From Clostridia bacterium (GTDB lineage Bacteria; Bacillota; Clostridia; Oscillospirales; CAG-272): a stretch of 64,000 bases of DNA. Positions 1 through 38,253 of the stretch are shown here, one piece after another. How positions within the stretch are numbered: position 1 is the first letter of the stretch; each line of letters starts with the position of its first letter. The position numbers and the translations under genes are program-made. The notes under the pieces were generated by a model. The model did no database searches. It was given only the letters and a program-made list of their open reading frames with translations, and was not told the DNA's origin. The stretch covers positions 3,416 through 67,415 of the forward strand of contig JAFUOH010000013.1 of the NCBI GenBank assembly GCA_017482055.1, in the 5' to 3' direction.

Positions 1-1056
1 CGCCACCTTCTTCTCGCCCAAGCTCTGCAAATCAAGCTCATCGGTAGATGTCAGCGTTGCAAGGCTTTCAAGGTTAAACTTTTCAAGTCTTGCCGCAAGA
101 GTGATCTGAATCGACTTTAAGGTTTTTGCGGAACCCGATCTGTACGCCTTGTAATACTTCAAGGCGATATGCGCAGGGTTATCTGTCTCAAGCATTCCAA
201 ACAGATCATCAAGTGCGCTGCCTGCGGCTTCATTCTCCTCGTCAATGTCACCCGCGCGCAGAAGCTCCATAACCATTGGGAAGTTCTGCTCCTCGGGCGG
301 TGCTTCATATCTCAAATAGAAGATTAGCGCAAGCAATAGCATTGAAGCCGCCGTATCCCAAAATGGGTCGTTGCTCTGACTTCCCTTGGGGGTGGTGGAC
401 TTGAACAGATTAGTTACAAGTCTCTGCACGTCGTTGTCACTCTCAATATACTTGAAAGGATTGTATCTGTCCGATCTTTCCATATTGATAAGGTCAAGCA
501 CACGGACTTCATATCCTTTTTCTTTGAGCAGACCGCCCGTGTCTCTCAAGATCTCACCCTTGGGGTCAAGCACCACAAACGAAGTGTTCGCTTGCATAAT
601 GTTCGGCTTGGCATAGAAGCGTGTTTTACCCGCACCACTACCACCGACCACCAACGTGTTGAAGTTGCGACGGTGAAGCTTGGCGTTATATCCAATGCTT
701 ACGTTTTGCGTTAAGACCTTATTGTTTTCCTCGGGAGCTTGGTGATACTTCTTGTTGATCTCCTTTGCTTCACCCCACTTAGCCGAACCGTGTTCTTCAC
801 GGCGGCGGTAGTTGGGTTTGGTATAGTGATAGACAATAAGGATCAAACCGTATATTGCGGTAAACACCACAATACAGGGCAAGGTCACATCACACCAAGT
901 AAAGCGAAAGGGATGCGAAAAAGCATCCCCCATCTTTGGAATCATTACCGGAAGTCCGCCACCGAGCGTCGGTGCGATCAGAACTGCAAGCCAAACGGGT
1001 ACAAGCAATCCCACCGCACCGACAATAAGCCATAGCTTTTTATTATCGTTCTTCAC
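1..1056 (-). CDS. Type IV secretion coupling protein (VirD4/TraG/TraD family), N-terminal 352 codons; continues beyond the left edge
   Basis: Not in the ORF track because it has no stop in the window. My minus-strand translation gives (V)KNDNKKLWLIVGAVGLLVPVWLAVLIAPTLGGGLPVMIPK...CIVVFTAIYGLILIVYHY (two TM helices). It continues ...RRNFNTLVVGGSGAGKTRFYAKPNIMQANTSFVVLDPKGE (Walker A at about 617-640). The frame stays open to position 1. The start is uncertain: GTG at 1056 or TTG at 1092. The ATG at 1033 is in a different frame that closes after 41 codons. Confidence 0.85.
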   Translation of the reverse strand, partial: MKNDNKKLWLIVGAVGLLVPVWLAVLIAPTLGGGLPVMIPKMGDAFSHPFRFTWCDVTLPCIVVFTAIYGLILIVYHYTKPNYRRREEHGSAKWGEAKEINKKYHQAPEENNKVLTQNVSIGYNAKLHRRNFNTLVVGGSGAGKTRFYAKPNIMQANTSFVVLDPKGEILRDTGGLLKEKGYEVRVLDLINMERSDRYNPFKYIESDNDVQRLVTNLFKSTTPKGSQSNDPFWDTAASMLLLALIFYLRYEAPPEEQNFPMVMELLRAGDIDEENEAAGSALDDLFGMLETDNPAHIALKYYKAYRSGSAKTLKSIQITLAARLEKFNLESLATLTSTDELDLQSLGEKKVA

Positions 1057-1228
1057 GGTCTCTCTTTTTGCTCTTTTTTGTAGGTGCGTCAATGACCTTC
1101 AAGAGCACTTCATTGACGTCCTCGGTAGGCTTATTCGCAGCGATAAAATCGTTCCGTCTGTCCGCGAGTGCCTCCATCATCACGCGATGCTGAAAATCAT
1201 CGACCTCGATCACTCTGCGCTCATTCAT
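1043..1228 (-). CDS. Small conjugative-element protein, 61 aa, function unknown
   Basis: ORF of 61 aa. Its start shares one base with the stop of the upstream gene (TGATG). Weakly similar to the 55-aa ORF at 38354-38521 (F..RV..EAL..R......L..DA). Ends in ...KKRDREER. Confidence 0.55.
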   Translation of the reverse strand: MNERRVIEVDDFQHRVMMEALADRRNDFIAANKPTEDVNEVLLKVIDAPTKKSKKRDREER

Positions 1229-2178
1229 CAGCGTTCCTCCCTATTTTTGCTCCCTTTGTTCGGATTCTGCTGCTCCTTGGTCTGAGTCTGCTCAAGAGAC
1301 TCAATCATTCGGGCGGTGATGGTCTTGACATTACTGTGAACGTCACCGAGCACCTTCTTTACGTCCTCTGCCTCCATCGTTTCAATATTCTGAGGAATAC
1401 CGTAAACGTCAACGGTGCGAGTATCGACACCGTATCTCTGAGAGATCACGTAAGCGGAACATCTTGCCGCAAACTCATGCTCACCGATGCGGTAGTTCTC
1501 CACGTCCTTTGCCATTTCCGCGTGGGCAAGAGCTTTTGCAAGCGCCGGGAAGATCGCATCGAACTCCAAGCCTGCCTTGAAGTAGACAACCTTGTTCTTA
1601 GCATCGTAGATCGCATTGTGTTCGCCAAGACTTTTCTCTGCCTTGCAAACGGGAACGGGAGCATCGTGAACAAGAGCCGCAACGAGCTGTTTCTGCTCAT
1701 AGGACTTCGGCTGAGGAAGTGCATCTTCGGGAGCTTCTACGTCGGCAATGTCAAAGACGTGTTTTGCATTATATCCTCTGTGCATCTTTCCGTCGTTTCC
1801 CTTATAGGGGGAAGGCTCCAAGATCATAATGCTCTTTGCACCTTTCTTGACGGAAATATCCTCCTTGTTCCAAGCAGCCAATTCCTTTAACTTAACCGCA
1901 TCGGGCTTCTGCTCAAAGATAAGCAACGCATTGTTCAGCGAATACTTATCGAAACGGCTCTGCACGTTGAGAAACTGACGCAGGCTCTCTATGCTCGATA
2001 CTGCATTGAGGCAAGCATCGTCGATCATAGCATAGCACTGATTTTTCTTCTCTGCCATGCGCTCGGCAAAGCTCTTTTTGCCCTCTCCCTCGTCGGCAAC
2101 TTCAACCGATTCGGGTGGGACATTATTGACTTCATTTTTCTTGTTGGCTTCATTGATTACGTTTTCAAATACGCTCAT
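1228..2178 (-). CDS. Hypothetical conjugative-element protein with a possible ArdC-N-like (ssDNA-binding) module
   Basis: 316-aa ORF. The segment RFDKYSLNNALLIFEQKPDAVKLKELAAWNKEDISVKKGAKSIMILEP follows the pattern I recall for the ArdC N-terminal domain (YS..N..L...Q ... W ... V.KG.K.I.I). It is related to the N-terminus of the giant ORF at 21009. The family call is recollection-based. Confidence 0.45.
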   Translation of the reverse strand: MSVFENVINEANKKNEVNNVPPESVEVADEGEGKKSFAERMAEKKNQCYAMIDDACLNAVSSIESLRQFLNVQSRFDKYSLNNALLIFEQKPDAVKLKELAAWNKEDISVKKGAKSIMILEPSPYKGNDGKMHRGYNAKHVFDIADVEAPEDALPQPKSYEQKQLVAALVHDAPVPVCKAEKSLGEHNAIYDAKNKVVYFKAGLEFDAIFPALAKALAHAEMAKDVENYRIGEHEFAARCSAYVISQRYGVDTRTVDVYGIPQNIETMEAEDVKKVLGDVHSNVKTITARMIESLEQTQTKEQQNPNKGSKNREER

Positions 2179-2189
2179 TCTGTTTTACC

Positions 2190-2990
2190 TTACCTTTCTT
2201 TCGGTTTACTTCCCTTGCTCTTGCCGAGTTCGGGAGTCTTGGTTGTTTCCTTGGGTCTCTCGCTTCTCTTGCGATTGATCTCCTCTAACTTTTTTCTTAC
2301 GGACGGCTTACGGTCTGACTTGCCCTCGCTCTTATCATCAGATCTTTCGGGATTTTTGGTAGCCGTCGAGGATGGCTCGGACGGAAGGTTTCTTTCGGGT
2401 TCCGTTCCCTCCGGCACCCTCGTAGTTTCCGTCCGAGCCGCAGTAGGGTTTTCCATTTCGTTCTCCTCCTTTTGGATAGGCTTGCCAAGGATCTCATCGG
2501 CAAGCTTCTCGTCGGCACTCTTTTCGGGTTTGTCGTTTTCGGGAACGTCGGTCTTTCCTTCGTCCTTTTCGATCTCCTCTTTTTCACGAATGATCTCTGC
2601 GCGAAGGTCAGCCGTATTGACTCTTGCAAGATTGAATCGCTCGGTAATTCGTGCGATCTTGCTCTCGTCCTCTGCTCTGACCATAACGTCAAAGACACCG
2701 CCCGTTTTGTCTTTTTCCTTCAGCACGGTGTAGAGGATACCGTACTGCTTGGCGACCTCTTTGAATTTCGGCAGGTCGCTATCCCTAAAGGTGTAAACCT
2801 TCAAGGGCTTTCCGCTTCGGAGCATACTTTCAAGTCTCGCGGCTCCCTTTGTTTTCTTTTGCTCACGAGCAATCGAATACAAAAGAACAGCGGCGTTCTT
2901 CGCACCGCTACCCGAGAGCTTGACAAGAACCTCCGCGCCGTTCAGCATCATCCTCATGACCTGATCAGCAGCTTCTCCGGATGTGTTCAT
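2190..2990 (-). CDS. pcfB: PcfB family protein (DUF3801-like)
   Basis: The N-terminal 130 aa (QVMRMMLNGAEVLVKLSGSGAKNAAVLLYSIAREQKKTKGAARLESMLRSGKPLKVYTF...YGILYTVLKEKD) match the PcfB pattern seen next to relaxases in Firmicutes elements. The C-terminal half is low-complexity and charged. There is a 4-nt ATGA overlap with the relaxase stop. Confidence 0.7.
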   Translation of the reverse strand: MNTSGEAADQVMRMMLNGAEVLVKLSGSGAKNAAVLLYSIAREQKKTKGAARLESMLRSGKPLKVYTFRDSDLPKFKEVAKQYGILYTVLKEKDKTGGVFDVMVRAEDESKIARITERFNLARVNTADLRAEIIREKEEIEKDEGKTDVPENDKPEKSADEKLADEILGKPIQKEENEMENPTAARTETTRVPEGTEPERNLPSEPSSTATKNPERSDDKSEGKSDRKPSVRKKLEEINRKRSERPKETTKTPELGKSKGSKPKER

Positions 2991-4321
2991 CTCTTGTCCT
3001 CTCTTTCGTTAGTTTTTGTTTTCGCATCGTTGGTATCTCTCCTTTGAAGATTCTTGTCGGGAATGTGAATCGTGTTGACCACCGCCTCAACAACACCGCT
3101 TCTTGCCGCAATGTCCTCGCAGAGTTTCATCTGCTTTCGTAGATCTGCCATCTGCGAAGATAACTCTGAGATCTCGTCCTTTATCGGTTGCATCGTCTCG
3201 GTATCGTGCATACGGCGAAGCTTGTTGCGGAGCTTGGCTCTCTTATATGCGAGTTCCTTAAACTTGTTGGATAACCCCTCGGTAAACAAAGAAAGCTCCT
3301 CGGCAGTATTGATGTTATACTTACCAAGAAGCTTTGCTTCCTCCGAATACATACGCGCACGTTTCACATCTTCCTTGATAACCGCGTATGCTTCACGATT
3401 ATTCGGTCTTTCTTTTGGCAGAGCACCAAGAAGATAACAATAATGGATATACAACGCATACAGACCTTTCGGTTTTTCTCTCGGCACATACGCCATATAC
3501 GGAATGACACGACGATTTCTCGCGTTATCTATGATTCGCTCCTTCACATCCTCCAAGGTGTATCCCTCTCCGAGCTTATCCATACGGAAGAACTTTTTAC
3601 TCGCGTCGGGACGTATGCGAAGATACTGCCCTCTCCACTCAAGCGTGTATCCGAGTGCTTGAAAAAGGTTCTCGAACATTCTGAAACTCGTACTGTGCTT
3701 GATTGCAATATCCATATCCCGACGTATGATTCCTCGCACGGTCGGTCTACCTTCTTGCTCGGCTTTGAGCTCACCGATGTGTCGGGTCTTTCCCCTCTGT
3801 GGGTTCTTGATTACGGATAGTCCGTGCTCTTGACACAATCGGTCGGAAACCTCGCGCATCCTGCGGTAGTTATCTCCGTCAGCATGAAATCTTCGTCCAT
3901 CAAAACCCGTCGCACATATCGCGTAGTGGTTATGAACGTGTCGGGTATTGAGGTGGGTTGTGACAAGCACCGGAAAGTTTTCTCCCCACATTTCTTTTGC
4001 GAAGGCGATACCGATAGCGTGTGCGGTTTTCGGATCGACTTCATCTTCCGCAAAGCTCTGATAGGCGTGATAGGCAACGCGATCCGAGTTGGTGGGATAG
4101 GTTGAAAGATTTTTGTTCATCACACTCAAAACATTTTCGGGTGTGCAACCTATTCCCGTAACGTACAACCTCTGCTCTGTTTTACTCTCATCGGCATCAT
4201 ACCAAATAAGATTTTTGAGAGCTTCGCTTGTTTCGTTCTCGGTGGTCTTATCGAGATCACAGACATACTCAATCAGTTGTCGGAGTCGTTCCTTGACCGC
4301 CCATATCTTCGTTGTAGCCAA
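2987..4321 (-). CDS. MOB relaxase (MobA/VirD2-type relaxase/mobilisation nuclease domain)
   Basis: N-terminal MATTKIWAVKERL..., then a YHAYQSF (catalytic Tyr region) and the His-rich metal motif THLNTRHVHNHYAI. The start codon is TTG at 4321, with GAGGTG 9 nt upstream. It overlaps the MobC 3' end by 53 nt. Confidence 0.85.
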   Translation of the reverse strand: MATTKIWAVKERLRQLIEYVCDLDKTTENETSEALKNLIWYDADESKTEQRLYVTGIGCTPENVLSVMNKNLSTYPTNSDRVAYHAYQSFAEDEVDPKTAHAIGIAFAKEMWGENFPVLVTTHLNTRHVHNHYAICATGFDGRRFHADGDNYRRMREVSDRLCQEHGLSVIKNPQRGKTRHIGELKAEQEGRPTVRGIIRRDMDIAIKHSTSFRMFENLFQALGYTLEWRGQYLRIRPDASKKFFRMDKLGEGYTLEDVKERIIDNARNRRVIPYMAYVPREKPKGLYALYIHYCYLLGALPKERPNNREAYAVIKEDVKRARMYSEEAKLLGKYNINTAEELSLFTEGLSNKFKELAYKRAKLRNKLRRMHDTETMQPIKDEISELSSQMADLRKQMKLCEDIAARSGVVEAVVNTIHIPDKNLQRRDTNDAKTKTNEREDKR

Positions 4322-4664
4322 ACTTCACACCACCTCTCACAAGCTGTTCCGAGAGACTTGCAACACAACGCCAAATCTTATCTGCGTTGGCTTGATACTC
4401 TCTGTCATCGACAAAGCCGAGCGAATGAGCCTTACTTGCAATCTGATTCATATTGACACCGATCTTTTGGAGTTCCCAAATCACTTGCGAATATTCTGCG
4501 GGAGGAAAAGCGACGGGGGTAAATCCGTTTATCAGTTCACGCAAGTAAGCATTCATCGTTCTTTTCGATGCTGATGACCATTCGCACAATCTCTGATACT
4601 CATCATCGTTAAGTCGAATGGTAATACGATGCTTGCGACTACGGTTTGCATCAAACTTATTCAT
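4269..4664 (-). CDS. mobC: MobC-family relaxosome accessory protein (ribbon-helix-helix)
   Basis: The sequence RKHRITIRLNDDEYQRLCEWSSASKRTMNAYLRELING...VIWELQKIGVNMNQIA is typical of plasmid mobilisation MobC proteins. It lies immediately upstream of the relaxase. Confidence 0.75.
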   Translation of the reverse strand: MNKFDANRSRKHRITIRLNDDEYQRLCEWSSASKRTMNAYLRELINGFTPVAFPPAEYSQVIWELQKIGVNMNQIASKAHSLGFVDDREYQANADKIWRCVASLSEQLVRGGVKFGYNEDMGGQGTTPTTD

Positions 4665-4777
4665 TCATTTTTGCGGCGGGGTCTTAGGGGCTGTCCCCTC
4701 ACAAGTAAGCGTTTGGGCGTCCAACCGCGATGCTTGCTAAGACTGAAAGACAGCTCCTCCCCGTCGCCGTCCTCCTT

Positions 4778-4975
4778 TCATCGCTCGTAAGACTCGCGTT
4801 TTCTTGCAGGTGATACTGCATTGAACTCTACGCCTTTGAAATCTTCCGCATCAAGAATATATTCGGAATTGTGCCAAGCATCTGACACGATCTGCTCCGC
4901 TTCGTCTCTGTCCTCTGCTTCGACTTCGACTACTTTTTCAAGAGTTTCGGTAATCTTTACCTTGTAGGTTTTCAT
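4778..4975 (-). CDS. DpnD/PcfM-like small protein
   Basis: 65 aa: MKTYKVKITETLEKVVEVEAEDRDEAEQIVSDAWHNSEYILDAEDFKGVEF. This is the beta-alpha-beta pattern I recall for DpnD/PcfM-like proteins of conjugative elements. Confidence 0.6.
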   Translation of the reverse strand: MKTYKVKITETLEKVVEVEAEDRDEAEQIVSDAWHNSEYILDAEDFKGVEFNAVSPARKRESYER

Positions 4976-4984
4976 TGATTCACC

Positions 4985-5509
4985 TCACTCTGCGTGTCTC
5001 AAGGAGTAGATTTCTTCGTCGAGCTCGTCCAAGAAATCTTCCGAATCAAGTACCATATCGGTGGGGATCTTCTTGCCGAGAGGATAGCGATAGATCATGC
5101 TTGCTTCGCTAATCGGATCACTCATCATACAGAAATAAGTGAACACGATACGCATATCGTCAAGCAACCACATCTCATACCCTTCGCAGAAATCATCATC
5201 GGCACAGCAACCTGCGATAACGAAATCATTGAGGAGAAACCCTTTGTTGCCAAACAGATTGTTGTGCTTCACGTTGAAGCTGAACTCCTCCATTCCTTCG
5301 ATCTCGCAACCACATACCGGGCGGAACTTCCAATCGAGCAACGGGTCAAAGTCCGCAAATCCATTGAGATAATCGTCAATGGTATCTGCGATAAACTTGT
5401 TCTCGTCTCTCTGCATCAGCACCTTGCGGAGCTTCTTCTTGAACTTCAAATGGTTCTTGGTATCCTTCGATACTTCATCTGTTTTGATCTGAATTTTCAC
5501 GGTTCTCAT
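4985..5509 (-). CDS. Hypothetical protein (174 aa), Cys-containing, function unknown
   Basis: Long ORF in an operon context. Its start is uncertain because it overlaps the upstream Toprim gene by 35 nt. I recognise no family. Confidence 0.5.
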   Translation of the reverse strand: MRTVKIQIKTDEVSKDTKNHLKFKKKLRKVLMQRDENKFIADTIDDYLNGFADFDPLLDWKFRPVCGCEIEGMEEFSFNVKHNNLFGNKGFLLNDFVIAGCCADDDFCEGYEMWLLDDMRIVFTYFCMMSDPISEASMIYRYPLGKKIPTDMVLDSEDFLDELDEEIYSLRHAE

Positions 5510-6452
5510 TCCTTTCGTTTTTGAAATTGATTTGTTTGGTTATCATTAGATAATCGTTGTAGTCCTTACCTTCGGGCGGAGGAATATATCGTACTTCGTA
5601 CTTTCCTCCGAGAATAACTTGCAGGGCATCAGCACCTCTCTGTCCCGCGAAATCGTTATCAAGATAAAGACAAATCTTCTTTGTGTTTGGGTGAGTTGCA
5701 AGATAATGTTCAAGCGGCATCGGTATCGTGGATTCTTCGATTTTCTTTTTCGGTAGATATATTCCCGAGAGAGATATGAGGTTTTCCGTTCGATAATCTT
5801 TTCCGATCTCCTTAAGCATCGTGGCGTATGACAGCAGATCTATCGCACTTTCAAAGACTCTGACCGTTAGATTTTCATCGTTGGATGCGATCTTGAAAGC
5901 GTATCTTTTGTCACTTCCCGCCATATCTTTTTTACCCGAGCTACCATCGGTCTCACGCGAACAGCAATGCTTGAGGTCTCCCTTTTCATCGAACCCAAGG
6001 AACAATACCGCACCACTTCTTGCGTGTTCGGTAATCATTCCTTGCTCGACACATTCATTGATGATCCCTTCATCAATGCCACGGGCAAGCAAATATTTCT
6101 TTGCTTGGTTGAGCATTGGAGTGTGTATCGGCATATAAACTCTTTCGTAAGTTTTCTTTGGTTTGGGCGAAATAAATGACGGTATTTCTACCGCCTTACC
6201 CATAACTGATTCAACTGCCGATAAGAAATCCATTCCTCGGACTTTGATAAGATAGTCAAGTGCAGATGCGCCGCCGATTCCCCTCGACCACCAAAACCAC
6301 TTACCGTTTGAGATCTTGAGTGAGTCGTGAGAACGAGTGCAGTATTCATTCCCGTCACACTTTACAAGTTCACTTGGATCGGTAGCTTTGAGATAAGAAA
6401 GAAGATCAACCTTTCGTGCTTCTGCAACTATCTCGGGTTGAATATACGCCAT
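5475..6452 (-). CDS. DUF3991 + Toprim domain protein (conjugative primase-like)
   Basis: The N-terminal VDLLSYL....C..HDSLKISNGKWFWWSRGIGGASALDYLIKVRGMDF is DUF3991-like. The C-terminal region has a Toprim-like acidic motif, ICLYLDNDFAGQRGADAL. Confidence 0.7.
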   Translation of the reverse strand: MAYIQPEIVAEARKVDLLSYLKATDPSELVKCDGNEYCTRSHDSLKISNGKWFWWSRGIGGASALDYLIKVRGMDFLSAVESVMGKAVEIPSFISPKPKKTYERVYMPIHTPMLNQAKKYLLARGIDEGIINECVEQGMITEHARSGAVLFLGFDEKGDLKHCCSRETDGSSGKKDMAGSDKRYAFKIASNDENLTVRVFESAIDLLSYATMLKEIGKDYRTENLISLSGIYLPKKKIEESTIPMPLEHYLATHPNTKKICLYLDNDFAGQRGADALQVILGGKYEVRYIPPPEGKDYNDYLMITKQINFKNERNENRENSDQNR

Positions 6453-6454
6453 AG

Positions 6455-6841
6455 TTACCTTTCGTCTCGCTCTCGCGCTTTTCTTTCTTGAACTTCTTTC
6501 TTGAACTCCTCGCGCGAGATCTCGTTTGCTTTACACTCGATTGCCCTTCTAACGGTGTCCATGTGATTCTTTTCAAAGTCCTCCCACTTGCCAAAGATCT
6601 CATCAAGTGCGTTCTCGGATTTCAAAAGAGCTTGCGCTTGTCTTGCGTGAATACTTCCACACTCAATAGCGATCACGATGTCTGAACGAACTGCATAGGC
6701 ATAAGCGTGTTCAAGCAACTGTTCGGGAGGCAGCATAAGCAAATTATTCTTGTACTCCTCAAACTCTGTGCTGACCTTTTCATAAAGTTCAGCATTAAGT
6801 TCTTCTGCTGTTTTCGGTCTTTCACCGAGCATTTTCATCAC
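6455..6841 (-). CDS. DUF3848-like conjugative-element protein
   Basis: LYEKVSTEFEEYKNNLLMLPPEQLLEHAYAYAVRSDIVIAIE matches my recollection of DUF3848 proteins. The annotated start at 6841 is GTG. The ATGs at 6838 and 6832 are alternative starts. Confidence 0.55.
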   Translation of the reverse strand: MMKMLGERPKTAEELNAELYEKVSTEFEEYKNNLLMLPPEQLLEHAYAYAVRSDIVIAIECGSIHARQAQALLKSENALDEIFGKWEDFEKNHMDTVRRAIECKANEISREEFKKEVQERKARERDER

Positions 6842-6850
6842 CTCGCTTTA

Positions 6851-7015
6851 TCAAAAATATCCTTCGATCTTGCACTCTTTCACTTCTGTTTCGTGATACA
6901 AGATACGTTCTTCCGACACGGCTTCAGCGGCTTTTGCCTTTGCTTCTTCTTCGCAATCGGCTTCAACTTCGATATATCCGGTCTGTACGATTGTAACGGC
7001 TACTCCATATTTCAT
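6851..7015 (-). CDS. Small DpnD/PcfM-like protein, 54 aa (below the ORF-track cutoff)
   Basis: My translation is MKYGVAVTIVQTGYIEVEADCEEEAKAKAAEAVSEERILYHETEVKECKIEGYF. The ATG at 7015 is preceded by GAGGAGGAAGGGGCG. It has the same fold-like pattern as the 4778-4975 protein. Confidence 0.55.
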   Translation of the reverse strand: MKYGVAVTIVQTGYIEVEADCEEEAKAKAAEAVSEERILYHETEVKECKIEGYF

Positions 7016-7111: not shown

Positions 7112-7155
7112 TTGACTATTCAATTTTAATAAACTGTTCGATAAATTGGAATTTG

Positions 7156-8028
7156 TCAATACCTATTACCATAAAGATATTTATTTGAAATTCTCTTTTG
7201 TGTTTCCAAATATTTTGTAACGTTTTCATCATAATCAGGATAATTATAACCAAGTGAATCTGCCACTTTTTTAGATATTTTTTTGAACAAACATAGACAC
7301 AAATCAAACGATTTCCACATTTCTTCATACGAACTCATTGAATATGTATTTAGTAAGTTATCCCACAATTCTTTTGAAATATGCTTATCTAAAAATTTAT
7401 AGTTTTTACCCAAACTGAAATTAAATCCTTTTTCAGTACCGACATACCAACTAATCATCCTAAGAAGCTCATGACGTAATACTTCATTCATATGGTCTAT
7501 TGCAAATAGTATTTCACCACGAAGTAAGCCCTTGGATACATATGTTGCAACATTCCAAAATTCGTTACAACAGTCATCAAACTTTCTTTCTGTTGGACAC
7601 TTAATGTAATAATCTTCATCTGTGGGAACTATTTCTGTTTTAATCATATTATCTTTATCTAACATGATTTTTACAAGTTTATCGCGAGTAAGATACTCCT
7701 CAAGCATTGAAACAGGTAACAAAGTTAAATCAATCTTTACACCATCATCAAAAAGCATTATATAAGAAAATCCTTTTTCTTCTGGAGGAAATAATTCCAT
7801 ATCTTCAGGTTTTTGCATCATAATTCTGTTACCAAAAACACTAAGCCAGTCATCGCTTTTCAAAAATTCTCCCATATCTATAACAAAAAAAGTAATATCA
7901 TAATCTTGAAGATTGTCTTTTGGTATATTAACATTAGTGCGAGACCCCTCAAGAGTTACAATTCTAATTCTCTCATCTTGAAAAGCAAAATTCAAAACTA
8001 AATCGTATATTTCTTTTTCAGTCCTCAT
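7156..8028 (-). CDS. ant(6): Aminoglycoside 6-nucleotidyltransferase ANT(6) (streptomycin resistance, AadE family)
   Basis: MRTEKEIYDLVLNFAFQDERIRIVTLEGSRTNVNIPKD..QDYDITFFV...IMMQKPEDMELFPPEEKGFSYIMLFDD..KIDLTLLP...DDCCNEFWNV...ILFAIDH...RHELLRMISW is near-colinear with ANT(6)-Ia as I recall it. The start is taken as the ATG at 8028, with GAGGTG 6 nt upstream. The track start at 8037 is GTG. Confidence 0.9.
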   Translation of the reverse strand: MRTEKEIYDLVLNFAFQDERIRIVTLEGSRTNVNIPKDNLQDYDITFFVIDMGEFLKSDDWLSVFGNRIMMQKPEDMELFPPEEKGFSYIMLFDDGVKIDLTLLPVSMLEEYLTRDKLVKIMLDKDNMIKTEIVPTDEDYYIKCPTERKFDDCCNEFWNVATYVSKGLLRGEILFAIDHMNEVLRHELLRMISWYVGTEKGFNFSLGKNYKFLDKHISKELWDNLLNTYSMSSYEEMWKSFDLCLCLFKKISKKVADSLGYNYPDYDENVTKYLETQKRISNKYLYGNRY

Positions 8029-8081
8029 TTCATTCACCTCAATAAAATTATATCACAAAAAAAGATTGATTCTAACTGTTC

Positions 8082-8849: not shown

Positions 8850-8861
8850 ACTATCTCTCCG

Positions 8862-9492: not shown

Positions 9493-9532
9493 AACAAACC
9501 TCCATTCGTCAAATTGGAATTTGGAGAACTGT

Positions 9533-9967: not shown

Positions 9968-9979
9968 TGAAACACCTCA

Positions 9980-10022: not shown

Positions 10023-10024
10023 CG

Positions 10025-29142: not shown

Positions 29143-29154
29143 TTCATTTCTCCT

Positions 29155-29634: not shown

Positions 29635-29645
29635 TCGCCCTCACC

Positions 29646-30056: not shown

Positions 30057-30068
30057 GGTTGCACCTCC

Positions 30069-30941: not shown

Positions 30942-30953
30942 ACCGTTTCCTCC

Positions 30954-31880
30954 TTATCTCTTATATTCAATGGGTTTCGTGATCTTGTTCATACGAATCG
31001 CGGTAATGATAATGACTACGCCACTTATGGCAAGAACGATCTTACCAAACACCGTATTCATCAGCGCATCGTACCAATCTCGGTTGAGACAGTACAAAAG
31101 CGGAACGTTGCCGACAACCATCAGCACCATCATCCAATACTCACGTCTTGTTTCCGCAAGCATCGTCTTGAGGGAGTTATTGACAAGTCTTACGTCGGTC
31201 AGCTTTGATACTACGGGCATCAAGGTGTCCTTGAGGGTTCTGTCGTTCTGACACGCGATAAGGGTATCACACCATTCCTCATAGATGCTGTTCTTAACCT
31301 TATCTTTGAGATTGTGGATAGCACCGCGAATGTCGGGTGAAATGATCGTTGCTTCTGCGATAAACTCCTCAAAAATGCCCTTGATAGGCGGCTTGAGATA
31401 GGAAAGGTTCTCCTGCACCGCACTTACAAGGTTGTCGCTTCGGATATATGAGGTGGTGATAATAGAAAGAGCCGTTTCAAGCTCTTGTCTGACCTGCGTT
31501 TCATAGATAGCAATCGCTTTGGTGAGGTAGGCAAAAGGAATCAGAGCGAAAGCAATCGCAAGAACGGGAATAAGGAACATATTATCGATGGCGATTGCTA
31601 CGATACAACCCACTACCATAAGGAGCAGCGCCGCCGTACACGCCAACGAAAACTGCTTTTCCTTGCCCGTTTCCTGCAAGGCTCGTCTGATACGTTCAAG
31701 CTCAAGAATGAGTCTGTTCTTTCTTTTCTTACCTCGTGCCATAAGTGCTTGGTCTTTGAGGGTCTGCTGTTTGTTGAACAGTTCGTTTATATCCTTATTG
31801 ATCTGTTCGGGTGTCAGCTTCAAGAGCGCAATCGTCGCAACGACAAGCAAAATAAAGCTGATAATATAGAGTGCTGTCAT
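30954..31880 (-). CDS. tadB: Type II secretion system F-family membrane protein (TadB-like)
   Basis: 308 aa with the same topology as TadC-like. It has an ATGA overlap with the upstream ATPase gene. Confidence 0.6.
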   Translation of the reverse strand: MTALYIISFILLVVATIALLKLTPEQINKDINELFNKQQTLKDQALMARGKKRKNRLILELERIRRALQETGKEKQFSLACTAALLLMVVGCIVAIAIDNMFLIPVLAIAFALIPFAYLTKAIAIYETQVRQELETALSIITTSYIRSDNLVSAVQENLSYLKPPIKGIFEEFIAEATIISPDIRGAIHNLKDKVKNSIYEEWCDTLIACQNDRTLKDTLMPVVSKLTDVRLVNNSLKTMLAETRREYWMMVLMVVGNVPLLYCLNRDWYDALMNTVFGKIVLAISGVVIIITAIRMNKITKPIEYKR

Positions 31881-33187
31881 ACGCTTCCCTCCTCTCTTTC
31901 AAATCTTTTAAGAAGCTCGTGCGGGATACCGCCGCGCAAAAGCTTTGAGCGCAGATACTCCGATGGGCTGTTTTCTTGGATAAACTCACCTACAATGTGG
32001 AACTGACCGTCCACGTACTCGTTACTGTGGATCTTGTAGCGGTAGAGCGTTCTGTACTCAAGCTCTCCGTCATCGTGAACGATGCACTCGGAAATGTCCA
32101 TTACCTTACGGGTGTTGTCCTCAAGCTTGTGTGCAAACACAACTACGGGGAAAGCAAGTGCCGCCTGCTGCATAGAGATCTTCATGTCGATAGGAAATCT
32201 TCTCTGCGAAAGGAAGGCAATACGACGATGAGCATATCTTCCACCGCCACCGTGAACAGTCGTTACAACGGTGTGGTCGGTGGAGCTTGCTTCTACTGCG
32301 GAATGAGCCTCCGCGTCTCTCATCTCACCTACACAGATCACGTCGGGGTCAAAACGGAGGGCTGCCATTACCAAGTCCTCTTGGGTAATGTCGTAGATGT
32401 CCTTATCCGATGGGCGAGACAGGGTATGCACCACGTTATTTATGACTCTGCCCTGCTCGTCTCTCTTAACAAGGGATAACTCTCTCGCACCGCTTTCAAT
32501 CGTATAGATACGTTTACTGTCGGGGATAGAACCGAGGAGAGAGTTCAGAAGCGTTGTCTTACCGGAGCTTGTTCTACCTGCAACAACGAAGGACACACCG
32601 TAACGTAAGCAAGTCTCAAGAAAGGCAAGCATATCGTCGGTGAGTGATTCTGTGTCGATGAGGTTTTCCCTATCTACTCTCTGCGGATGAAGCATACGGA
32701 TAGAGACCGCAATACCTCTGTCTGCATCTACAATAGGTTCTTTCAAAGCCGTAACACGAGTGTTATTCGGCAAATGTCCTTGCGCGATGGGAGCCGCATT
32801 GTCGATAATCATACCCGAATGGTGAAGCAGCTTCTTTACGATGTCGATGGCGTGCCCGGGAGAGAAGAAATGCTCCTCTGCCTTTTCAATACGACCATCA
32901 AGGTGTGTCAAAGCCACGTCATCCCAACCGTTGATATTGATCTCCTCAAGGTCGGGGTCTGCAAGGTACTTAGTGAGGATCGAATACTCCGCCATTTCGG
33001 TGAAAAGGCGTTCTACCAAGCCTTTGGTGTCATACCCCGCTACCGAATAACCCGTATCATAAAGATACTTTCCGATATACGCTTTCAGCTCGGCGGTCTT
33101 GCTTTTGTCGATAAGTGCTGCCGCGTAATTCTTCGCAATATAGCTCTGTGTGAGTCCTACAAGCGAAGATAATTCGATCTGTGCCAT
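31877..33187 (-). CDS. tadA: CpaF/TadA-family secretion ATPase (T2SS-E / VirB11-like)
   Basis: Walker A VVAGRTSSGKTTLLNSLLG, an Asp box and Walker B ...DPDVICVGEMRDAEA, and a His box TVVTTVHG. Confidence 0.85.
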   Translation of the reverse strand: MAQIELSSLVGLTQSYIAKNYAAALIDKSKTAELKAYIGKYLYDTGYSVAGYDTKGLVERLFTEMAEYSILTKYLADPDLEEININGWDDVALTHLDGRIEKAEEHFFSPGHAIDIVKKLLHHSGMIIDNAAPIAQGHLPNNTRVTALKEPIVDADRGIAVSIRMLHPQRVDRENLIDTESLTDDMLAFLETCLRYGVSFVVAGRTSSGKTTLLNSLLGSIPDSKRIYTIESGARELSLVKRDEQGRVINNVVHTLSRPSDKDIYDITQEDLVMAALRFDPDVICVGEMRDAEAHSAVEASSTDHTVVTTVHGGGGRYAHRRIAFLSQRRFPIDMKISMQQAALAFPVVVFAHKLEDNTRKVMDISECIVHDDGELEYRTLYRYKIHSNEYVDGQFHIVGEFIQENSPSEYLRSKLLRGGIPHELLKRFEREEGSV

Positions 33188-33190
33188 AAC

Positions 33191-33931
33191 TTACACCACC
33201 CTTTCCGCGATTGCTCGAATCGTCTGCATGAACTTCTTATCCTTCAACGGTTCATACAGATTTCCCTCCATATACTGTTCTGTCAGTGTGGAGCAGTAAG
33301 GAACCGTAAAGGCGATCTTTCCAAGATGAAGTCTCGCATCAGCGGCGGCAAGATTAAATTCCTCGCGGGGAATGTTCATCACCGCCACATCGTTTTCGCG
33401 GAGATAACCGTGAGAAGCAAAGATCTTCTGCTGAGACATCTGAAAGCTCAAGCACTTGAGATCGGGCGTAGACAGACGAATGACCTGCTCCGCTTTTTCA
33501 AGCGCTACGCTTGTAAGAAAGTTGGAGTCGGGGAGAGACATACAATCCACGATCACATAGTCCGCAATTCCTACAAGCACATCATAGAGATACTTTGCTT
33601 TTTCTTCCGTATAATCGGGAAAGGAGTGTTTGTTCTCGCTGTCCTTATATCCGAGATACCCGAGGTTCATTCTGTCCTTTGTCATTACCATATTGGAAAC
33701 AACGTCGTCAGCGAAAAAGTCGGGTTTGGTAAGGATAGTTCCCACCGAGAATACATCCTCGGAACGGAAGTTGGGAAAGATCACGGGAATGGTAGGTGTC
33801 ACAATATCGGTAAACACGACGATAACAGCACTTTTGCCACGGGAGCGATTGTAAAGAGCTTCCGCGAGTTTTACCGAAAAGGTGGTCTTGCCACTATCCG
33901 GCGAACCCCATACTGCTATCAATTTACCCAT
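33191..33931 (-). CDS. ParA/MinD-like P-loop ATPase (TadZ/CpaE analogue)
   Basis: N-terminal KLIAVWGSPDSGKTTFSVKLAEAL. It lies between the CpaB-like and CpaF-like genes, as in Tad loci. Confidence 0.55.
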   Translation of the reverse strand: MGKLIAVWGSPDSGKTTFSVKLAEALYNRSRGKSAVIVVFTDIVTPTIPVIFPNFRSEDVFSVGTILTKPDFFADDVVSNMVMTKDRMNLGYLGYKDSENKHSFPDYTEEKAKYLYDVLVGIADYVIVDCMSLPDSNFLTSVALEKAEQVIRLSTPDLKCLSFQMSQQKIFASHGYLRENDVAVMNIPREEFNLAAADARLHLGKIAFTVPYCSTLTEQYMEGNLYEPLKDKKFMQTIRAIAERVV

Positions 33932-34736
33932 TGTTCTCCTCCTCCGTTTCCTTCGGTGTGTTGTCGATGGGGTTATTCTTCAGATAATCGTCCTGCACCT
34001 TGATATATGCGTCTGCCTTATCCGTTTCCCCTCTGTAAACAAGCGTAAAGTGAATGGTAGTCACAGAATTGTAGTGTGCCAAAAGCTCTGCCTGCTCGGG
34101 TGTAACAAGTACCGTAACAGTAGCGGCTTTACCGCCCTCAACGATCTCGTCCTTATCCACACCTTCGTTTGTGGTTGTGGTAATGACCTTAACGTATTTC
34201 AGCTCTGCGGGGATATATGAGGTATACATATCCTTGTCGTAAATGATTACAGACACAATATCTCCGTTTTCAAGCTTATCTGAGAGACCTGCTGCAAAGT
34301 TTGCCACATTCACGGAAACTGCTACCTTTTCCCCGCCAAGTCCGAGAAGCACATCGTCCGCGCTCTTGTTATCGGTGGAGAGTTTGTTTGCGAAAAGATA
34401 ATCTCCCGTGTAAAGATCTGTCGCGGCATATTTACCCACAACGGCTTTACCGTCTTTGATCACGTTATTCGGGAGATTGTAGGAACCGACGTTGACGATT
34501 TCAAGGTGGTCTGCGGTGATGATCTGACCTCTCGGCACATCTGCTTTGAGTCTGACAATATCCACCTTCTGATCGGTAAATCTGTTCACCAAGGGAGCAA
34601 CGCCAAAGGTGATAAGAAGTGCGAGTACGATACAGATAACTCCGATGACCGTTCTTGAAGAAAATGGCTTCTTACCGGGAGCTTTAGGTGCTTTGGGTGT
34701 TTTCATAGGCTTGGAGCCAAAATTTCCAAAACTCAT
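33924..34736 (-). CDS. cpaB: Flp pilus assembly protein CpaB/RcpC-like (SAF domain)
   Basis: N-terminal TM anchor, then a SAF-like segment VDIVRLKADVPRGQIITADHLEIVNV and a beta-rich C-terminal domain. Confidence 0.65.
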   Translation of the reverse strand: MSFGNFGSKPMKTPKAPKAPGKKPFSSRTVIGVICIVLALLITFGVAPLVNRFTDQKVDIVRLKADVPRGQIITADHLEIVNVGSYNLPNNVIKDGKAVVGKYAATDLYTGDYLFANKLSTDNKSADDVLLGLGGEKVAVSVNVANFAAGLSDKLENGDIVSVIIYDKDMYTSYIPAELKYVKVITTTTNEGVDKDEIVEGGKAATVTVLVTPEQAELLAHYNSVTTIHFTLVYRGETDKADAYIKVQDDYLKNNPIDNTPKETEEENNG

Positions 34737-34756
34737 TTTTCTTTTTCCTCCTTAAA

Positions 34757-35350
34757 TTAAATGAAATATCCGATCATCAGACCGGTAGATAAAAACGGCA
34801 ACAGCGGAAAGGCTTCTTTGTTAGATTGCTTCTTGACCTTGTTGTAGATCGTTTGAAATACGATTGCAAAGACAAGACCGATCATATAGCCGATCACACC
34901 GCCGTAAAAACCGAGGCACAAAGCGGCAGCAGTTGAGAATTTGAAATCTGCTCCGCCTTGCCCTTTCGTTTTGAAAAACATTACTACTATAAACTGCGGC
35001 AAGAATACACCGAGAGCACCGAATAGCATTGAGGTTACACCTACTTCTTTGTAATTTACAAGAGCAAGTATCAGCAGCATAACCCAAAGGAACTCATCGG
35101 CTTTGCGCTCTGACAAATCCTGCACAGAAGCACGTAGCAATATGAGAGCCAACACGATACCTTTCACCGTCCACATCGAAAAGCCGCCTACAAAGTAAAG
35201 CGCACCGACGATTGCGGGGAGCAAAAGGTATGTGAGGTAGGGATTAAAGGCTAAGCCGCGTTGATCCATATAATAGTTCATCAGCCCGCCCACGATAACC
35301 GTCAGAAAGACGAGAGCCGCAAAAGGGATTGCGAATGATATAAATTCCAT
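34757..35350 (-). CDS. A24-family prepilin peptidase (TadV/CpaA-like)
   Basis: Polytopic membrane protein with the two aspartyl motifs, ...SVQDLSERK... and ...GQGGADFKF... (GxGD-type). Confidence 0.75.
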   Translation of the reverse strand: MEFISFAIPFAALVFLTVIVGGLMNYYMDQRGLAFNPYLTYLLLPAIVGALYFVGGFSMWTVKGIVLALILLRASVQDLSERKADEFLWVMLLILALVNYKEVGVTSMLFGALGVFLPQFIVVMFFKTKGQGGADFKFSTAAALCLGFYGGVIGYMIGLVFAIVFQTIYNKVKKQSNKEAFPLLPFLSTGLMIGYFI

Positions 35351-35414
35351 TTGTCCTCCTTATAAATTAGGAGGACGGTTGGCTCCGTCCTCCGTAGATT
35401 ACTTCACGCAGCTC

Positions 35415-35645
35415 TTATCCTGCGTAATTGAACATTTCCAAGATCTCGGTGTTGAGACGAGGAATGATCACGGTGTTGAAAAGCGCGTAGAGACCGCCGA
35501 GGATAACCGCACCGACAACAACGCCGATGATGATCTTCACGCCCGTGTCGATATAACCCTCTGCCTTTGCGTTGGCAAGAGTGGTCTTTGCGGAAACCGC
35601 GAGGGAGTTTGCCTTGTTCTTGATCTTATCAAAAAACTTCTTCAT
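35415..35645 (-). CDS. Small pilin-like protein, copy 4 of 4 (76 aa)
   Basis: MKKFFDKIKNKANSLAVSAKTTLANAKAEG|YIDTGVKIIIGVVVGAVILGGLYALFNTVIIPRLNTEILEMFNYAG. It has a basic leader, a Gly, then a hydrophobic helix. Confidence 0.65.
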   Translation of the reverse strand: MKKFFDKIKNKANSLAVSAKTTLANAKAEGYIDTGVKIIIGVVVGAVILGGLYALFNTVIIPRLNTEILEMFNYAG

Positions 35646-35665
35646 TCTGATTCACCTCCCTTCAA

Positions 35666-35896
35666 TTACGCAGTATAGTTGAACATCTCACCGATCTCGG
35701 TGTTGAGACGGGGGAGGATGACGCCGTTAAAGAGCGCGTAGAGACCGCCGAGGATAACTGCACCGACTACGACACCGATGATGATCTTCACGCCCGTGTC
35801 GATATAGCCTTCTGCTCTTGCGTTGTCGATGGTGGATTTAGCGCGGATAGCGAGAGAGTTTGCCTTTGCCTTGATCTTGTTCATAAAGTTCTTCAT
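35666..35896 (-). CDS. Small pilin-like protein, copy 3 of 4 (76 aa)
   Basis: The core EGYIDTGVKIIIGVVVGAVILGGLYALF is identical to that of copies 2 and 4. Confidence 0.65.
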   Translation of the reverse strand: MKNFMNKIKAKANSLAIRAKSTIDNARAEGYIDTGVKIIIGVVVGAVILGGLYALFNGVILPRLNTEIGEMFNYTA

Positions 35897-35947
35897 TGTT
35901 TGATTACCTCATTCTTTCTGTTTTTTGATTGTGGATTGGTTTACGGA

Positions 35948-36178
35948 TTAACCCGCGTAATCGAACATACCGTCGATACGGGTCTCAAGGGTGGGGAGAA
36001 TTACGTTGTCAAAGAGAGCGTAGAGACCGCCGAGGATAACTGCACCGACTACAACGCCGATGATGATCTTCACGCCCGTGTCGATATAGCCCTCTGCCTT
36101 TGCGTTGTCGAGAGTGGTCTTAGCTCTGATAACGAGCGCGTTTGCCTTGTTCTGCATCTTGTTGAAAAACTTCTTCAT
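35948..36178 (-). CDS. Small pilin-like protein, copy 2 of 4 (76 aa)
   Basis: Same architecture, with divergent leader and C-terminal residues. Confidence 0.65.
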   Translation of the reverse strand: MKKFFNKMQNKANALVIRAKTTLDNAKAEGYIDTGVKIIIGVVVGAVILGGLYALFDNVILPTLETRIDGMFDYAG

Positions 36179-36247
36179 AGTTGAATTACCTCATTCTTTC
36201 ATTTTTAGATTTGATTTTTGATTTGGATTTTGTTTGCGGTTGTTAGA

Positions 36248-36487
36248 TTAGAGAAGGATGATGCCACCGCCGCCACCATCGTTTCCACCTCCACCGGGAG
36301 AACCGAACATATCTTGGATACGCTCTGCAAGCCCCGGCAGGATCAATGTGTTGAAGATATAATAGAGACCGCCGAGAAGCAGCGCACCGATCACTACGGC
36401 AATAATCATCTTGACCGCAGTATCCACGTAGCCTTCTCCGCCCTTATCTTCAAGCACGGCTCTTGCTCTTGCGAAAAACTTCTTCAC
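36248..36487 (-). CDS. Small pilin-like protein, copy 1 of 4 (79 aa, divergent, Gly-rich C-terminus)
   Basis: GTG start with AAGGAGG 6 nt upstream. The sequence is ...DKGGEG|YVDTAVKMIIAVVIGALLLGGLYYIF...GSPGGGGNDGGGGGIILL. Confidence 0.6.
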   Translation of the reverse strand: MKKFFARARAVLEDKGGEGYVDTAVKMIIAVVIGALLLGGLYYIFNTLILPGLAERIQDMFGSPGGGGNDGGGGGIILL

Positions 36488-36572: not shown

Positions 36573-36621
36573 AAAAAAACGGGGTAAAGTTTAGATGATA
36601 ATTTCATCCTCTTTACCCCGT
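36573..36621 (-). terminator. Rho-independent terminator downstream of parB
   Basis: The minus strand reads ACGGGGTAAAG-20nt-CTTTACCCCGT followed by TTTTTTT. Confidence 0.7.
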
Positions 36622-36641
36622 GATTTCGGTATTAAATTGTT

Positions 36642-37541
36642 TCATCGTGCGTCTCGGTTCTCCTTCTGCCGCTGACGGTACAAAGCAAGAGCTTTGATAA
36701 TGGTCTCCTCTATCTTCTGCTCCGAAGTACCTACGGGAAAGTATTTCTCAATCTTTTCCATAGGAATCTTGATTCGCGCCTTTTGGTTTGGCTTTTCTTC
36801 ATTCATAATGGTGTTGATAGCATCGGTGTCGAGTTTCCCTTCTTTACTCAATGCTCTCATTCTTATGGTTTGGGCGTGAGACGGGAACGTTCCCTCGGTG
36901 TCGATATAATCAACCAAGTCTCGCATTTCGTCCTCCTGCAAGTAAGAAAGCTCCACCGCAGGTCTCATACCGATTTTACCCTCATCGACAAATTCAAGTA
37001 GCTCAGGAGTCAATTCTGTCAATCTAACGTATCTACGAATCTGCTCACTGCTATCGGGACTATCCGCCGCCAACATATCTCTTGTGGTCTTGCCAAAATT
37101 CTGCTCCAGTGGGGCAGAATTTTCTTTACTTGGTCTACCTGCCTTTCTTTTCATCGCGTCCATCTTCATTTTATATGCCCGAGCCTTTTCCGAAGGTAAG
37201 ATGCACTCTCTTTGAAGATTGGAATCAACCATTTCGATGATGGCATCTTCACGACTCAATTCACGGACGATAGAGGGTATGAGCTTTATATCCAACTTAC
37301 GACAAGCGTATTTTCGTCTGTGTCCTGCGATGATCTCATATCGCTCTCCTTCTTTTTTGCGAAGAATAACGGGATTGAGAACGCCGTTCATTTCTATACT
37401 GCTTACAAGCTGCGCCATGCTTTCATCATCCTTTACTTGGAAAGGGTGCTCGGGGAAATCGTCGATAAGCTCAATGGAAATTATTCGCACCTTCTCGCGC
37501 TTTGGTTCATTCCCCTTTAACTCGTCAATGGATTCACTCAT
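36642..37541 (-). CDS. parB: ParB/Spo0J-like nuclease-domain protein
   Basis: IISIELIDDFPEHPFQV....M..LV.SIEMNGVLNPVILRKKEGERYEIIAGHRRKYACRKL (ParB box GHRR). The start is taken at the ATG at 37541, with AAGGAGAA upstream. The track start at 37640 adds 33 unlikely residues. Confidence 0.85.
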   Translation of the reverse strand: MSESIDELKGNEPKREKVRIISIELIDDFPEHPFQVKDDESMAQLVSSIEMNGVLNPVILRKKEGERYEIIAGHRRKYACRKLDIKLIPSIVRELSREDAIIEMVDSNLQRECILPSEKARAYKMKMDAMKRKAGRPSKENSAPLEQNFGKTTRDMLAADSPDSSEQIRRYVRLTELTPELLEFVDEGKIGMRPAVELSYLQEDEMRDLVDYIDTEGTFPSHAQTIRMRALSKEGKLDTDAINTIMNEEKPNQKARIKIPMEKIEKYFPVGTSEQKIEETIIKALALYRQRQKENRDAR

Positions 37542-38253
37542 TTGTTCTTTCTCCTTTCCTCTTGTGCTTATATTTCTTCGCTCTCTGCTTTTCGCTGACT
37601 CTGATAGCATCAAGACCGTATGCGCTGATAGCCACCGCATAACAGATCATTCGGAACACATCAAAGTCCACAACTTCATCATCGGAGAGGTCGAGCAGGT
37701 CTGAGTGTGCCGAACCGTATTCAAGATCTATCGCGGTTGTAAAGAGATTGTGCGGATTTACGTCAATGCCCTTGATAGAGATTTCAAGAGCCGAGTAAAC
37801 AACACAGTTCCTTTCAAGTACCTTTTTGGCTTCAACCCACAAGCTCTCATAAGCGGAAAGCAAGAAGATCTGAGCAATAAGGTTATTACTTGCCTTTCTT
37901 GTATAGGCAAGACCTTCATAGAAACGTTTGCGGTGTCCTGCATCCAAAAAGCAGCTTTTCAGTTCTGCTTCACGCTCAATAGCGATACGCAGACAGAAAT
38001 GAAACACGTTATCTCCGATGCCCGAGAAACAATATCTCATCATTTCCCCGAAAGTACAGGTATGAGCGCGGATGCGTTCATCCATACAGCAGCACTCCTT
38101 CAGAGCGCACTTGCCTTTGGTCGAATACAGACAATTACTGCATCGACAAACAAAGCTTTTATACGGAAACCCGGTATTTCCTCCTCCCCTGCGCTGAACC
38201 AAAGCAATGAGGTCTGAAACATCAAGACCCGTCTTTTTCATTTCAATATACAT
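37534..38253 (-). CDS. Hypothetical Cys-rich protein (239 aa)
   Basis: First long gene of the unidirectional array. Contains the Cys cluster FVCRCSNCLYSTKGKCALKECCCMDERIRAHTC. No family recognised. Confidence 0.5.
   Translation of the reverse strand: MYIEMKKTGLDVSDLIALVQRRGGGNTGFPYKSFVCRCSNCLYSTKGKCALKECCCMDERIRAHTCTFGEMMRYCFSGIGDNVFHFCLRIAIEREAELKSCFLDAGHRKRFYEGLAYTRKASNNLIAQIFLLSAYESLWVEAKKVLERNCVVYSALEISIKGIDVNPHNLFTTAIDLEYGSAHSDLLDLSDDEVVDFDVFRMICYAVAISAYGLDAIRVSEKQRAKKYKHKRKGERTNE

Follow-up and report, generated by a model that had tools for sequence, protein, structure and literature searches.

A recurrent arginine-terminated C-terminal tail on the soluble backbone proteins of a clade of pCF10/CTn4-type conjugative elements

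The window analyzed here is a 64,000-nucleotide (nt) stretch from a Clostridia bacterium (contig JAFUOH010000013.1, positions 3,416 to 67,415) in which every gene lies on the minus strand. Positions 1 to ~38,600 make up part of a conjugative element of a gut Firmicute, and from 39,413 onward the genes are metabolic ones of the host. In the element, most soluble backbone proteins end in a short charged tail whose last residue is Arg, and we consider it very probable (about 0.9) that these tails are a lineage-specific, protein-level C-terminal tag rather than a mere by-product of ribosome-binding sites. The tail is a disordered add-on of ~10 to 20 residues with mixed charge, often reading R-[DE]-[EA]-R-COOH. 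It is carried by the relaxase, PcfB, an ArdC-like protein, a primase-like protein, PcfM, DUF3848, a giant methylase-helicase, ParB and several unknown proteins, that is, by most of the soluble backbone of one clade of pCF10/CTn4-type elements.

An earlier note on this DNA had listed 16 such C-termini by the low ends (the stop codons) of their minus-strand genes. All 16 are present in the sequence exactly as given and 15 of them end in Arg, encoded by CGA (six), AGA (six), AGG (two) and CGC (one). The note had also placed the tail outside the resistance, adhesin and pilus proteins. Two proteins beyond the listed set, Lnu(C) at 10025 (..VPNEYR) and a TadB-like protein at 30954 (..KPIEYKR), likewise have Arg as the last residue but carry no comparable tail. 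Across the window, terminal Arg is found on 15 of 20 soluble backbone proteins, compared to 1 of 14 pilus and adhesin proteins, 1 of 5 resistance proteins and 1 of 19 host proteins (Fisher p = 3e-7 for 15/20 versus 3/38 other window proteins). Even when the tails' own Arg content (10%) is taken as the expectation, the binomial p is ~1e-11. Along the tail Arg is unevenly spread, making up ~10% of residues at positions -20 to -2 and 75% at position -1, with a further concentration at -4 in about half of the proteins; the motif seen most often has R at -4, D/E at -3, E/A at -2 and R at -1. The pattern of terminal Arg is not due to chance. A simple division into cytoplasmic and membrane proteins was rejected as its basis, since the TadA ATPase, a CpaE-like protein, VirB4, the coupling protein and the cytoplasmic proteins of cargo and host all lack the tag.

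Translational coupling explains part of these tails, as the earlier note had proposed. The four AGGGAGGA(A/G)(C/A)GNT(G/A)ATG junctions that it described at 1228, 21859, 22278 and 23950 are exact, and reading every junction placed the Shine-Dalgarno sequence (SD) or start of the next gene within, or overlapping, ~12 of the 16 tails. The test was a GGAGG-like motif 5 to 10 nt before an overlapping or abutting start; the coupled tails include the four exact AGGGAGGAACGNTRATG junctions, ATGA overlaps (relaxase/pcfB) and the tails at 37534, 22984 and 1043, and the tails at 4778, 10687, 21032 and 36642 lack this arrangement. Gene starts sometimes lie later than in the longest open reading frame (ORF), as for parB (37541) and the 22278 gene (22982), and the tails at 37534 and 22984 therefore also hold the SD of the next gene. 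The embedded SD accounts for the R-E-E spelling (AGG GAG GAA) and goes far to explain why the tails are rich in K, R and E. It leaves the terminal Arg unexplained, because the last codon sits in the spacer, where the SD does not fix it.

That coupling could not be the whole explanation, a further claim of the note, is strongly supported. Tails persist where no gene follows closely, as in the giant ORF, which precedes a real hairpin (GGGCAACAG...CUGUUGCC), in ParB, which precedes a real terminator (ACGGGGUAAAG...CUUUACCCCGUUUUUUU), and in PcfM homologues; the 113-nt gap after the 4778 ORF is likewise real. Terminal Arg is also independent of the type of junction. When soluble backbone proteins of eight elements were pooled, with orthologues counted repeatedly, terminal Arg was present in 38 of 52 genes whose next start overlaps or lies within 4 nt, in 14 of 17 at 5 to 30 nt and in 13 of 16 with no start within 30 nt (65/85 in total). 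The corresponding figures for machinery proteins were 0/12, 3/22 and 0/11 (3/45 in total), the two classes having been assigned by hand with four small unknown proteins of the type IV secretion system (T4SS) region taken as backbone. The tail is thus not restricted to genes with a nearby downstream start, the outcome that the note had named as refuting its claim. Pilus and T4SS genes provide a control from within the elements: where the SD is embedded in them in the same way, the last residue is E, K, Q, V or G.

Homologous proteins and related elements show the same signature. Related elements were collected from metagenome-assembled genomes (L001 to L008, with relaxases ~70% identical), from contigs encoding homologues of the 21032 protein and the giant protein (L013 to L017, L025 and L026), from IMG/VR (L009 to L012) and from PLSDB (L018 from Monoglobus, L019 from Cohnella and L023 from Subdoligranulum). 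Among 120 homologues of the 21032 protein (56 to 98% identity), 104 are Arg-terminal and 10 more end in ..ARS, while the ends themselves vary widely (SARDAR, DRDRNGR, EEQVKAR, NQIKQR, DKFSR). With the last 349 residues of the giant protein as the query, 114 of 120 homologues end in Arg, and they do so with 79 different 9-residue tails. ParB, ending in ..RDAR, has a terminal Arg in 119 of 120 homologues, all close relatives. After removal of duplicate tails, the entropy of the last position is 0.86 bits in the 21032 family and 0.49 bits in the giant family, compared to 1.8 to 3.4 bits at positions -2 to -12. All six Arg codons (CGA, AGA, AGG, CGC, CGG and CGT) are used terminally and the third positions of the preceding D/E/A codons vary. 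A nucleotide-level motif was rejected, the one feature that never changes in the DNA being an Arg codon before a stop.

The signature is also kept where the surroundings of the stop codon differ. Giant-ORF homologues end in ..DDRDER, ..EDRDER or ..DRDER directly ahead of terminator hairpins, and PcfM homologues end in ..YYER, ..RSER, ..ERER or ..QSER, with the SD-like AAGGAGGA coming after the stop. The SD mostly lies beyond the stop codon in the Monoglobus element and in L026, and Arg nevertheless closes 10 backbone proteins in the former and 12 in the latter; the residues ahead of the Arg are often uncharged (RSFAR, SCESR, DLSR, EPVR). Cargo and defence genes inserted in related elements are without the tail.

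The tail is separable from the protein that carries it. In an AlphaFold2 model of the 21032 protein (mean predicted local distance difference test [pLDDT] score of 89), the fold runs as far as ..VYGW, near residue 258, beyond which the final 17 residues form coil, with the pLDDT below 50 for residues 267 to 275; a Foldseek search of this model against the PDB returned no significant match. A 47%-identical homologue in a phage-like contig terminates at the domain end (..KIYGW*), and Pfam domains stop 15 to 20 residues ahead of the stop codon. The PcfM family is bimodal among representatives of 50%-identity clusters: 32 of 85 short proteins are Arg-terminal, 25 of these fitting R-[DE]-x(0-2)-[EDAG]-R, and the remaining short ones end soon past the domain with neutral or acidic ends. 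PcfM and PcfB of pCF10 have no such tail.

We compared elements by their coupling proteins. The 5' part of a VirD4-like coupling-protein gene occupies positions 1 to 1056 of the window (minus strand) and extends past its left end; its product, with a Walker A motif, shares 87% identity with the coupling protein of L003 and is the candidate reader of the tag. The L003 protein is in turn 72% identical to an L018 protein annotated as VirD4-like, CD1115 family. Pfam matches identify PcfB (DUF3801) and a MobA/VirD2 relaxase with a MobC/NikA accessory protein in the window, and the assignment of its VirD4 to the CD1115 family comes from the syntenic annotated loci L018 and L019; these are pCF10/CTn4-type traits. 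In annotated relatives the coupling protein is "VirD4-like, CD1115 family" and the ATPase "VirB4-like, CD1110 family," the same families as PcfC and PrgJ of pCF10. Genes for the CD1110-family VirB4 and PrgI-like T4SS proteins sit downstream of the coupling-protein gene in the syntenic L003, L007 and L018, a region that in our element lies beyond the left edge of the window. A megablast search of positions 1 to 6900 against plasmids gave no match.

The signature is present where the coupling protein is 59 to 76% identical to that of L003 (L007, L018, L023 and L019), a range that spans Oscillospiraceae, Monoglobus and a Bacillales plasmid. L026, with its genes in the same order, shows it too; the coupling protein of L026 was not compared to that of L003. 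In conjugative plasmids whose coupling proteins belong to the same family but are 42% identical or less it is absent, with terminal Arg on 2 of 41 proteins in pCF10, 2 of 30 in an Enterococcus avium plasmid and 0 of 26 in Clostridium botulinum pCLJ; Cutibacterium acnes pKB112 (4/24), in a GC-rich genome, is ambiguous. By these identities the signature tracks one clade of pCF10/CTn4-type elements.

The tag recurs on otherwise unrelated proteins of a single element and is missing from machinery, cargo and host proteins, which makes a shared reader likely. In line with the earlier note, we propose that the tag serves these proteins as a docking signal for a single partner encoded by the element, most plausibly the VirD4-type coupling protein whose gene lies directly downstream. 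Tagged proteins would then be recruited together with the relaxase-DNA complex, or beside it, and passed to the recipient, where anti-restriction, priming and partition functions are useful early. C-terminal Arg-containing signals are the norm for VirB/VirD4 substrates, and the Sog and TraC primases are co-transferred by conjugative plasmids. The coupling protein is the obvious candidate because its gene adjoins the tagged genes, because the tagged set resembles the proteins co-transferred in F-type systems and because VirB/VirD4 substrates normally carry signals of this kind. As in type IVA signals, the tag lies at the extreme C terminus outside the folded domain, and the same element encodes a VirD4-type coupling protein. 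A shared function in docking or transfer is a serious candidate to which we assign somewhat less than even odds. A stronger version, in which x-[DE]-[EA]-Arg-COOH on a disordered tail of mixed charge would be a dedicated substrate tag of a Gram-positive conjugative T4SS, read by CTn4-type VirD4 and co-sending a dozen establishment proteins with the DNA (relaxase, primase-like protein, ArdC-like protein, ParB, PcfB, PcfM and even the 3440-amino-acid [aa] methylase-helicase), is rather unlikely.

Known systems resemble this one in part. C-terminal, positively charged signals have been described for VirB/VirD4 substrates such as VirF, VirE2 and VirE3 of Agrobacterium (Vergunst 2005, as cited in PMC8406263 and PMC11288057). 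Like these, the tails are short, unstructured, Arg-containing extreme C-termini on unrelated proteins of a VirD4-coupled system; unlike them, they are of mixed charge (net ~+2), have a strictly conserved last residue after [DE][EA], lack the R-X7-R-X-R-X-R consensus and belong to a Gram-positive host, with a transfer role that is putative. The F-plasmid T4SS (the pED208 "conjutome") transfers ParA, ParB, SSB, PsiB and at least 16 plasmid proteins (PMC8406263, PMC11288057). The tagged set has similar establishment and maintenance functions (ParB, the primase-like Toprim protein, the ArdC-like protein and the relaxase), whereas F signals are heterogeneous, C-terminal or internal, with no shared motif known, and the present element has one simple shared C-terminal motif. 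pCF10 and CTn4-type modules draw on the same families (PcfB, PcfC/VirD4 CD1115, PrgJ/VirB4 CD1110 and PcfM), and CTn4-like loci have the same gene order; pCF10 differs in lacking the terminal-Arg signature, and our element adds a Tad/Flp pilus locus and the giant methylase-helicase. Searches of the full-text literature turned up neither an account of a terminal-Arg or RDxER tail in conjugative elements nor a defined T4SS signal in Gram-positive systems.

Several observations weigh against a transfer tag. Net charge is modest, with means of +1.7 (last 10 residues) and +1.9 (last 20), ~54% charged residues and 2 of 16 tails net negative, and none of the 16 matches the Agrobacterium consensus. 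The 3440-aa protein would be unusually large for a substrate. The tag is missing from part of the relaxosome and backbone (MobC/NikA, the 4985 protein and the 23690 protein), and certain orthologues no longer end in Arg (REERG in L002, EERKV in L007). pCF10 and the E. avium plasmid lack the signature with coupling proteins of the same NCBIfam family (CD1115), so the tag is not general to this type of T4SS. Moving the four small T4SS-region proteins to the machinery class changes the pooled counts to 61/81 backbone versus 7/49 machinery. Finally, the coupling protein is proposed as reader from the position of its gene and by analogy with known systems.

The simplest alternative to a tag of any kind is that the tails are purely what results from writing the GGAGG of one gene into the end of the gene before it. 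Coupling of this kind, through ATGA or TRATG overlaps, is plainly at work in the ~12 tails that hold an SD or start, and SD-containing tails are inevitably rich in R, E, K and G. It leaves unexplained, however, the Arg in the spacer, the tails kept without a downstream gene, the 61-aa protein whose REER is spelled CGT GAA GAA CGA without an SD, the equally coupled pilus and T4SS genes that never end in R and the distant elements that place the SD after the stop and keep the Arg. Contradicted by the homologue surveys and by the independence from junction type, this explanation was rejected as very improbable. The tails are charged and of low complexity, and a chance or compositional bias toward Arg-rich ends might also be suspected. 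Such a bias is at odds with the excess of Arg at position -1 alone, with control sets in which 6 to 7% of proteins are Arg-terminal and with the replication of the pattern in independent elements; this account was also rejected, its probability being close to nil. A third possibility acts at the ribosome, where peptidyl-tRNA(Arg), or a C-terminal Arg at the stop, would tune termination or re-initiation and so help to express long operons. In its favor, the operons that hold most tagged genes are densely packed, 12 of the 16 tails in the window extend into the initiation region of the next gene, and the last position shows a modest preference for A-ending Arg codons (12/15 NGA versus 51% internally), an excess that ATGA overlaps, which need an A-ending last codon, together with an A-rich stop context would explain. 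But the tag is equally frequent on operon-terminal genes before terminators (the giant ORF and ParB), the terminal Arg codons are read by different tRNAs, pilus and T4SS genes in the same operons and with the same junction geometry are Arg-terminal in 0 of 12 cases and a whole tail, not just a last codon, has been added. We regard a translational role as improbable, and as less likely than readings with another reader or another role.

Those last readings accept a protein-level tag and differ from the docking proposal in its purpose: the tag might be read by C-terminus-reading proteases, for protection or targeting, might bind nucleic acid such as the transferred strand or might dock proteins on another shared partner from the element, such as the relaxosome or PcfB. 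All of the evidence for selection at the protein level fits them equally well. Several families repeat Arg at -1, -4 and -8/-9, a spacing compatible with a short basic stripe for DNA or an acidic groove, the tails are of mixed charge rather than strongly positive, and pCF10 does without the tag despite its coupling protein of the same family. On the other hand, the coupling protein is the one candidate reader that emerged, and because cytoplasmic proteins of host and cargo are untagged, an element-specific system fits better than a general host protease. We judge readers or roles other than the coupling protein to be about as likely as docking for transfer, and give them, too, slightly less than an even chance.

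Substrate recognition by Gram-positive conjugation systems is a field in which a 2025 review calls the experimental evidence limited (PMC12857230). Here, one simple motif at the extreme C terminus is common to more than 10 unrelated proteins of a widespread, resistance-carrying family of gut-Firmicute elements, and its simplicity makes the question of substrate recognition directly testable. Were the tag a dedicated substrate signal, Firmicutes would have their first T4SS signal defined by sequence, and confirmation would make the proteins co-transferred with DNA predictable from sequence alone. If it serves stability or DNA binding instead, the gain of the same C-terminal tag by many unrelated proteins in one mobile-element lineage would still be unusual.

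Gene order in the element begins at its high-coordinate end with a 239-aa protein of no known family (37534-38253). Its tail, ..KGERTNE* (37534-37560), is the lone listed one without a terminal Arg and holds the SD and start of parB (37541). ParB follows (..KENRDAR*, 36642-36668; intrinsic terminator next), and after it come the Tad/Flp pilus locus and a 1316-aa adhesin with Listeria-Bacteroides repeats. Seven small soluble proteins (21032-24832, one of them DUF7007) come next. Tails in this region are ..KEDKDAR* of the 24230 protein (24230-24256), with an 11-nt overlap with the next gene; ..NRDREER* of the 23950 protein (23950-23976), with the SD embedded; ..PKERRR* of the 22984 protein (22984-23010), with an embedded SD for the gene whose true start is 22982; ..KDSREER* of the 22278 protein (22278-22304) and ..VKDREER* of the DUF7007 protein (21859-21885), both with the SD embedded; and the disordered 17-residue tail DFPTEKKERVSARDAR* of the 275-aa 21032 protein (21032-21082), with the next gene's SD after the stop. 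The 22278 and 22984 proteins (22278-23700) are adjacent paralogues, each with ..NYDENG.. ~15 residues ahead of its tail, so the 16 tails represent somewhat fewer than 16 independent families. NCBIfam and Pfam gave no family for the 37534, 4985, 21032, 22278 and 24230 proteins.

The next gene encodes the 3440-aa MutS_I/Eco57I-type methylase/SNF2 helicase, whose uncoupled tail ..RSDRTDR* (10687-10713) is followed by the hairpin. Beyond it and a low-GC resistance island lie DUF3848 (..ARERDER*, 6455-6481), a DUF3991-Toprim protein (..NSDQNR*, 5475-5501; 35-nt overlap with the next ORF), a 174-aa protein and PcfM/DpnD (..RKRESYER*, 4778-4804), which is uncoupled and is followed by the 113-nt gap, a candidate origin of transfer (oriT). 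After the gap come NikA/MobC, the MobA/VirD2 relaxase (..NEREDKR*, 2987-3013; ATGA overlap with pcfB), PcfB/DUF3801 (..SKPKER*, 2190-2216; next start 11 nt downstream), the ArdC-like protein (..SKNREER*, 1228-1254), in which AGGGAGGAACGCTGATG supplies the SD and overlapping start of the next gene, the 61-aa protein and the VirD4-like coupling protein. The tail of the 61-aa protein, ..KKRDREER* (1043-1069), overlaps the GTG start (~1056) of the VirD4-like gene, and its homologues end in RDREAR or KERDER.

Other features of these elements were noted in passing. The gap between pcfM and mobC (4665-4777) is conserved in L002 to L005 (AAGGAGGAyrGCGACGGGGAGGAGCTGTC...) and contains a GGGGACAGCCCC palindrome. 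Gene calling in L026 (19049-21140) gives a coupling protein of 1326 aa, a fusion of TraG/TrwB domains with AAA_11/AAA_12 helicase and MTES_1575 domains. MutS domain I of the giant protein (10687-21009) covers residues 1310 to 1396, alongside the Eco57I-type methylase and SNF2 helicase, and in relatives the gene is often split or broken by TnpV-type insertions (L014, L017, L018 and L026). The resistance island (7132-10519), inserted between DUF3848 and the giant ORF, contains ANT(6), a nucleosidase-like gene, a metallo-beta-lactamase-fold gene, AAC(6') and Lnu(C). A copy of a 35- to 73-nt direct repeat (AACTGTTCGAcctATTGGAATTTGT...) follows each gene, and the island has the look of a cassette array whose junction element recurs.

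In the window (28789-36487) a T4SS-type conjugative element houses a Tad/Flp pilus locus that is complete (compare L024, 1-7419), and C. botulinum pCLJ likewise has a Tad locus beside its VirD4 gene. The locus of the window has three tandem paralogues of a Flp-like pilin at 35415-36178 and a fourth at 36248-36487. Its TadB-like membrane protein is the sole pilus protein with a terminal Arg (..EYKR), and this holds in three of three elements examined (window 30954-31880, L015 114-1040 and L017 108-1034). Lastly, the phage-like IMG/VR contig L009 carries, at 10924-14908, a tandem array of ~12 paralogous genes of ~105 aa, all starting with MTNEEIRKRF and most having an ATGA-type overlap with the next gene.

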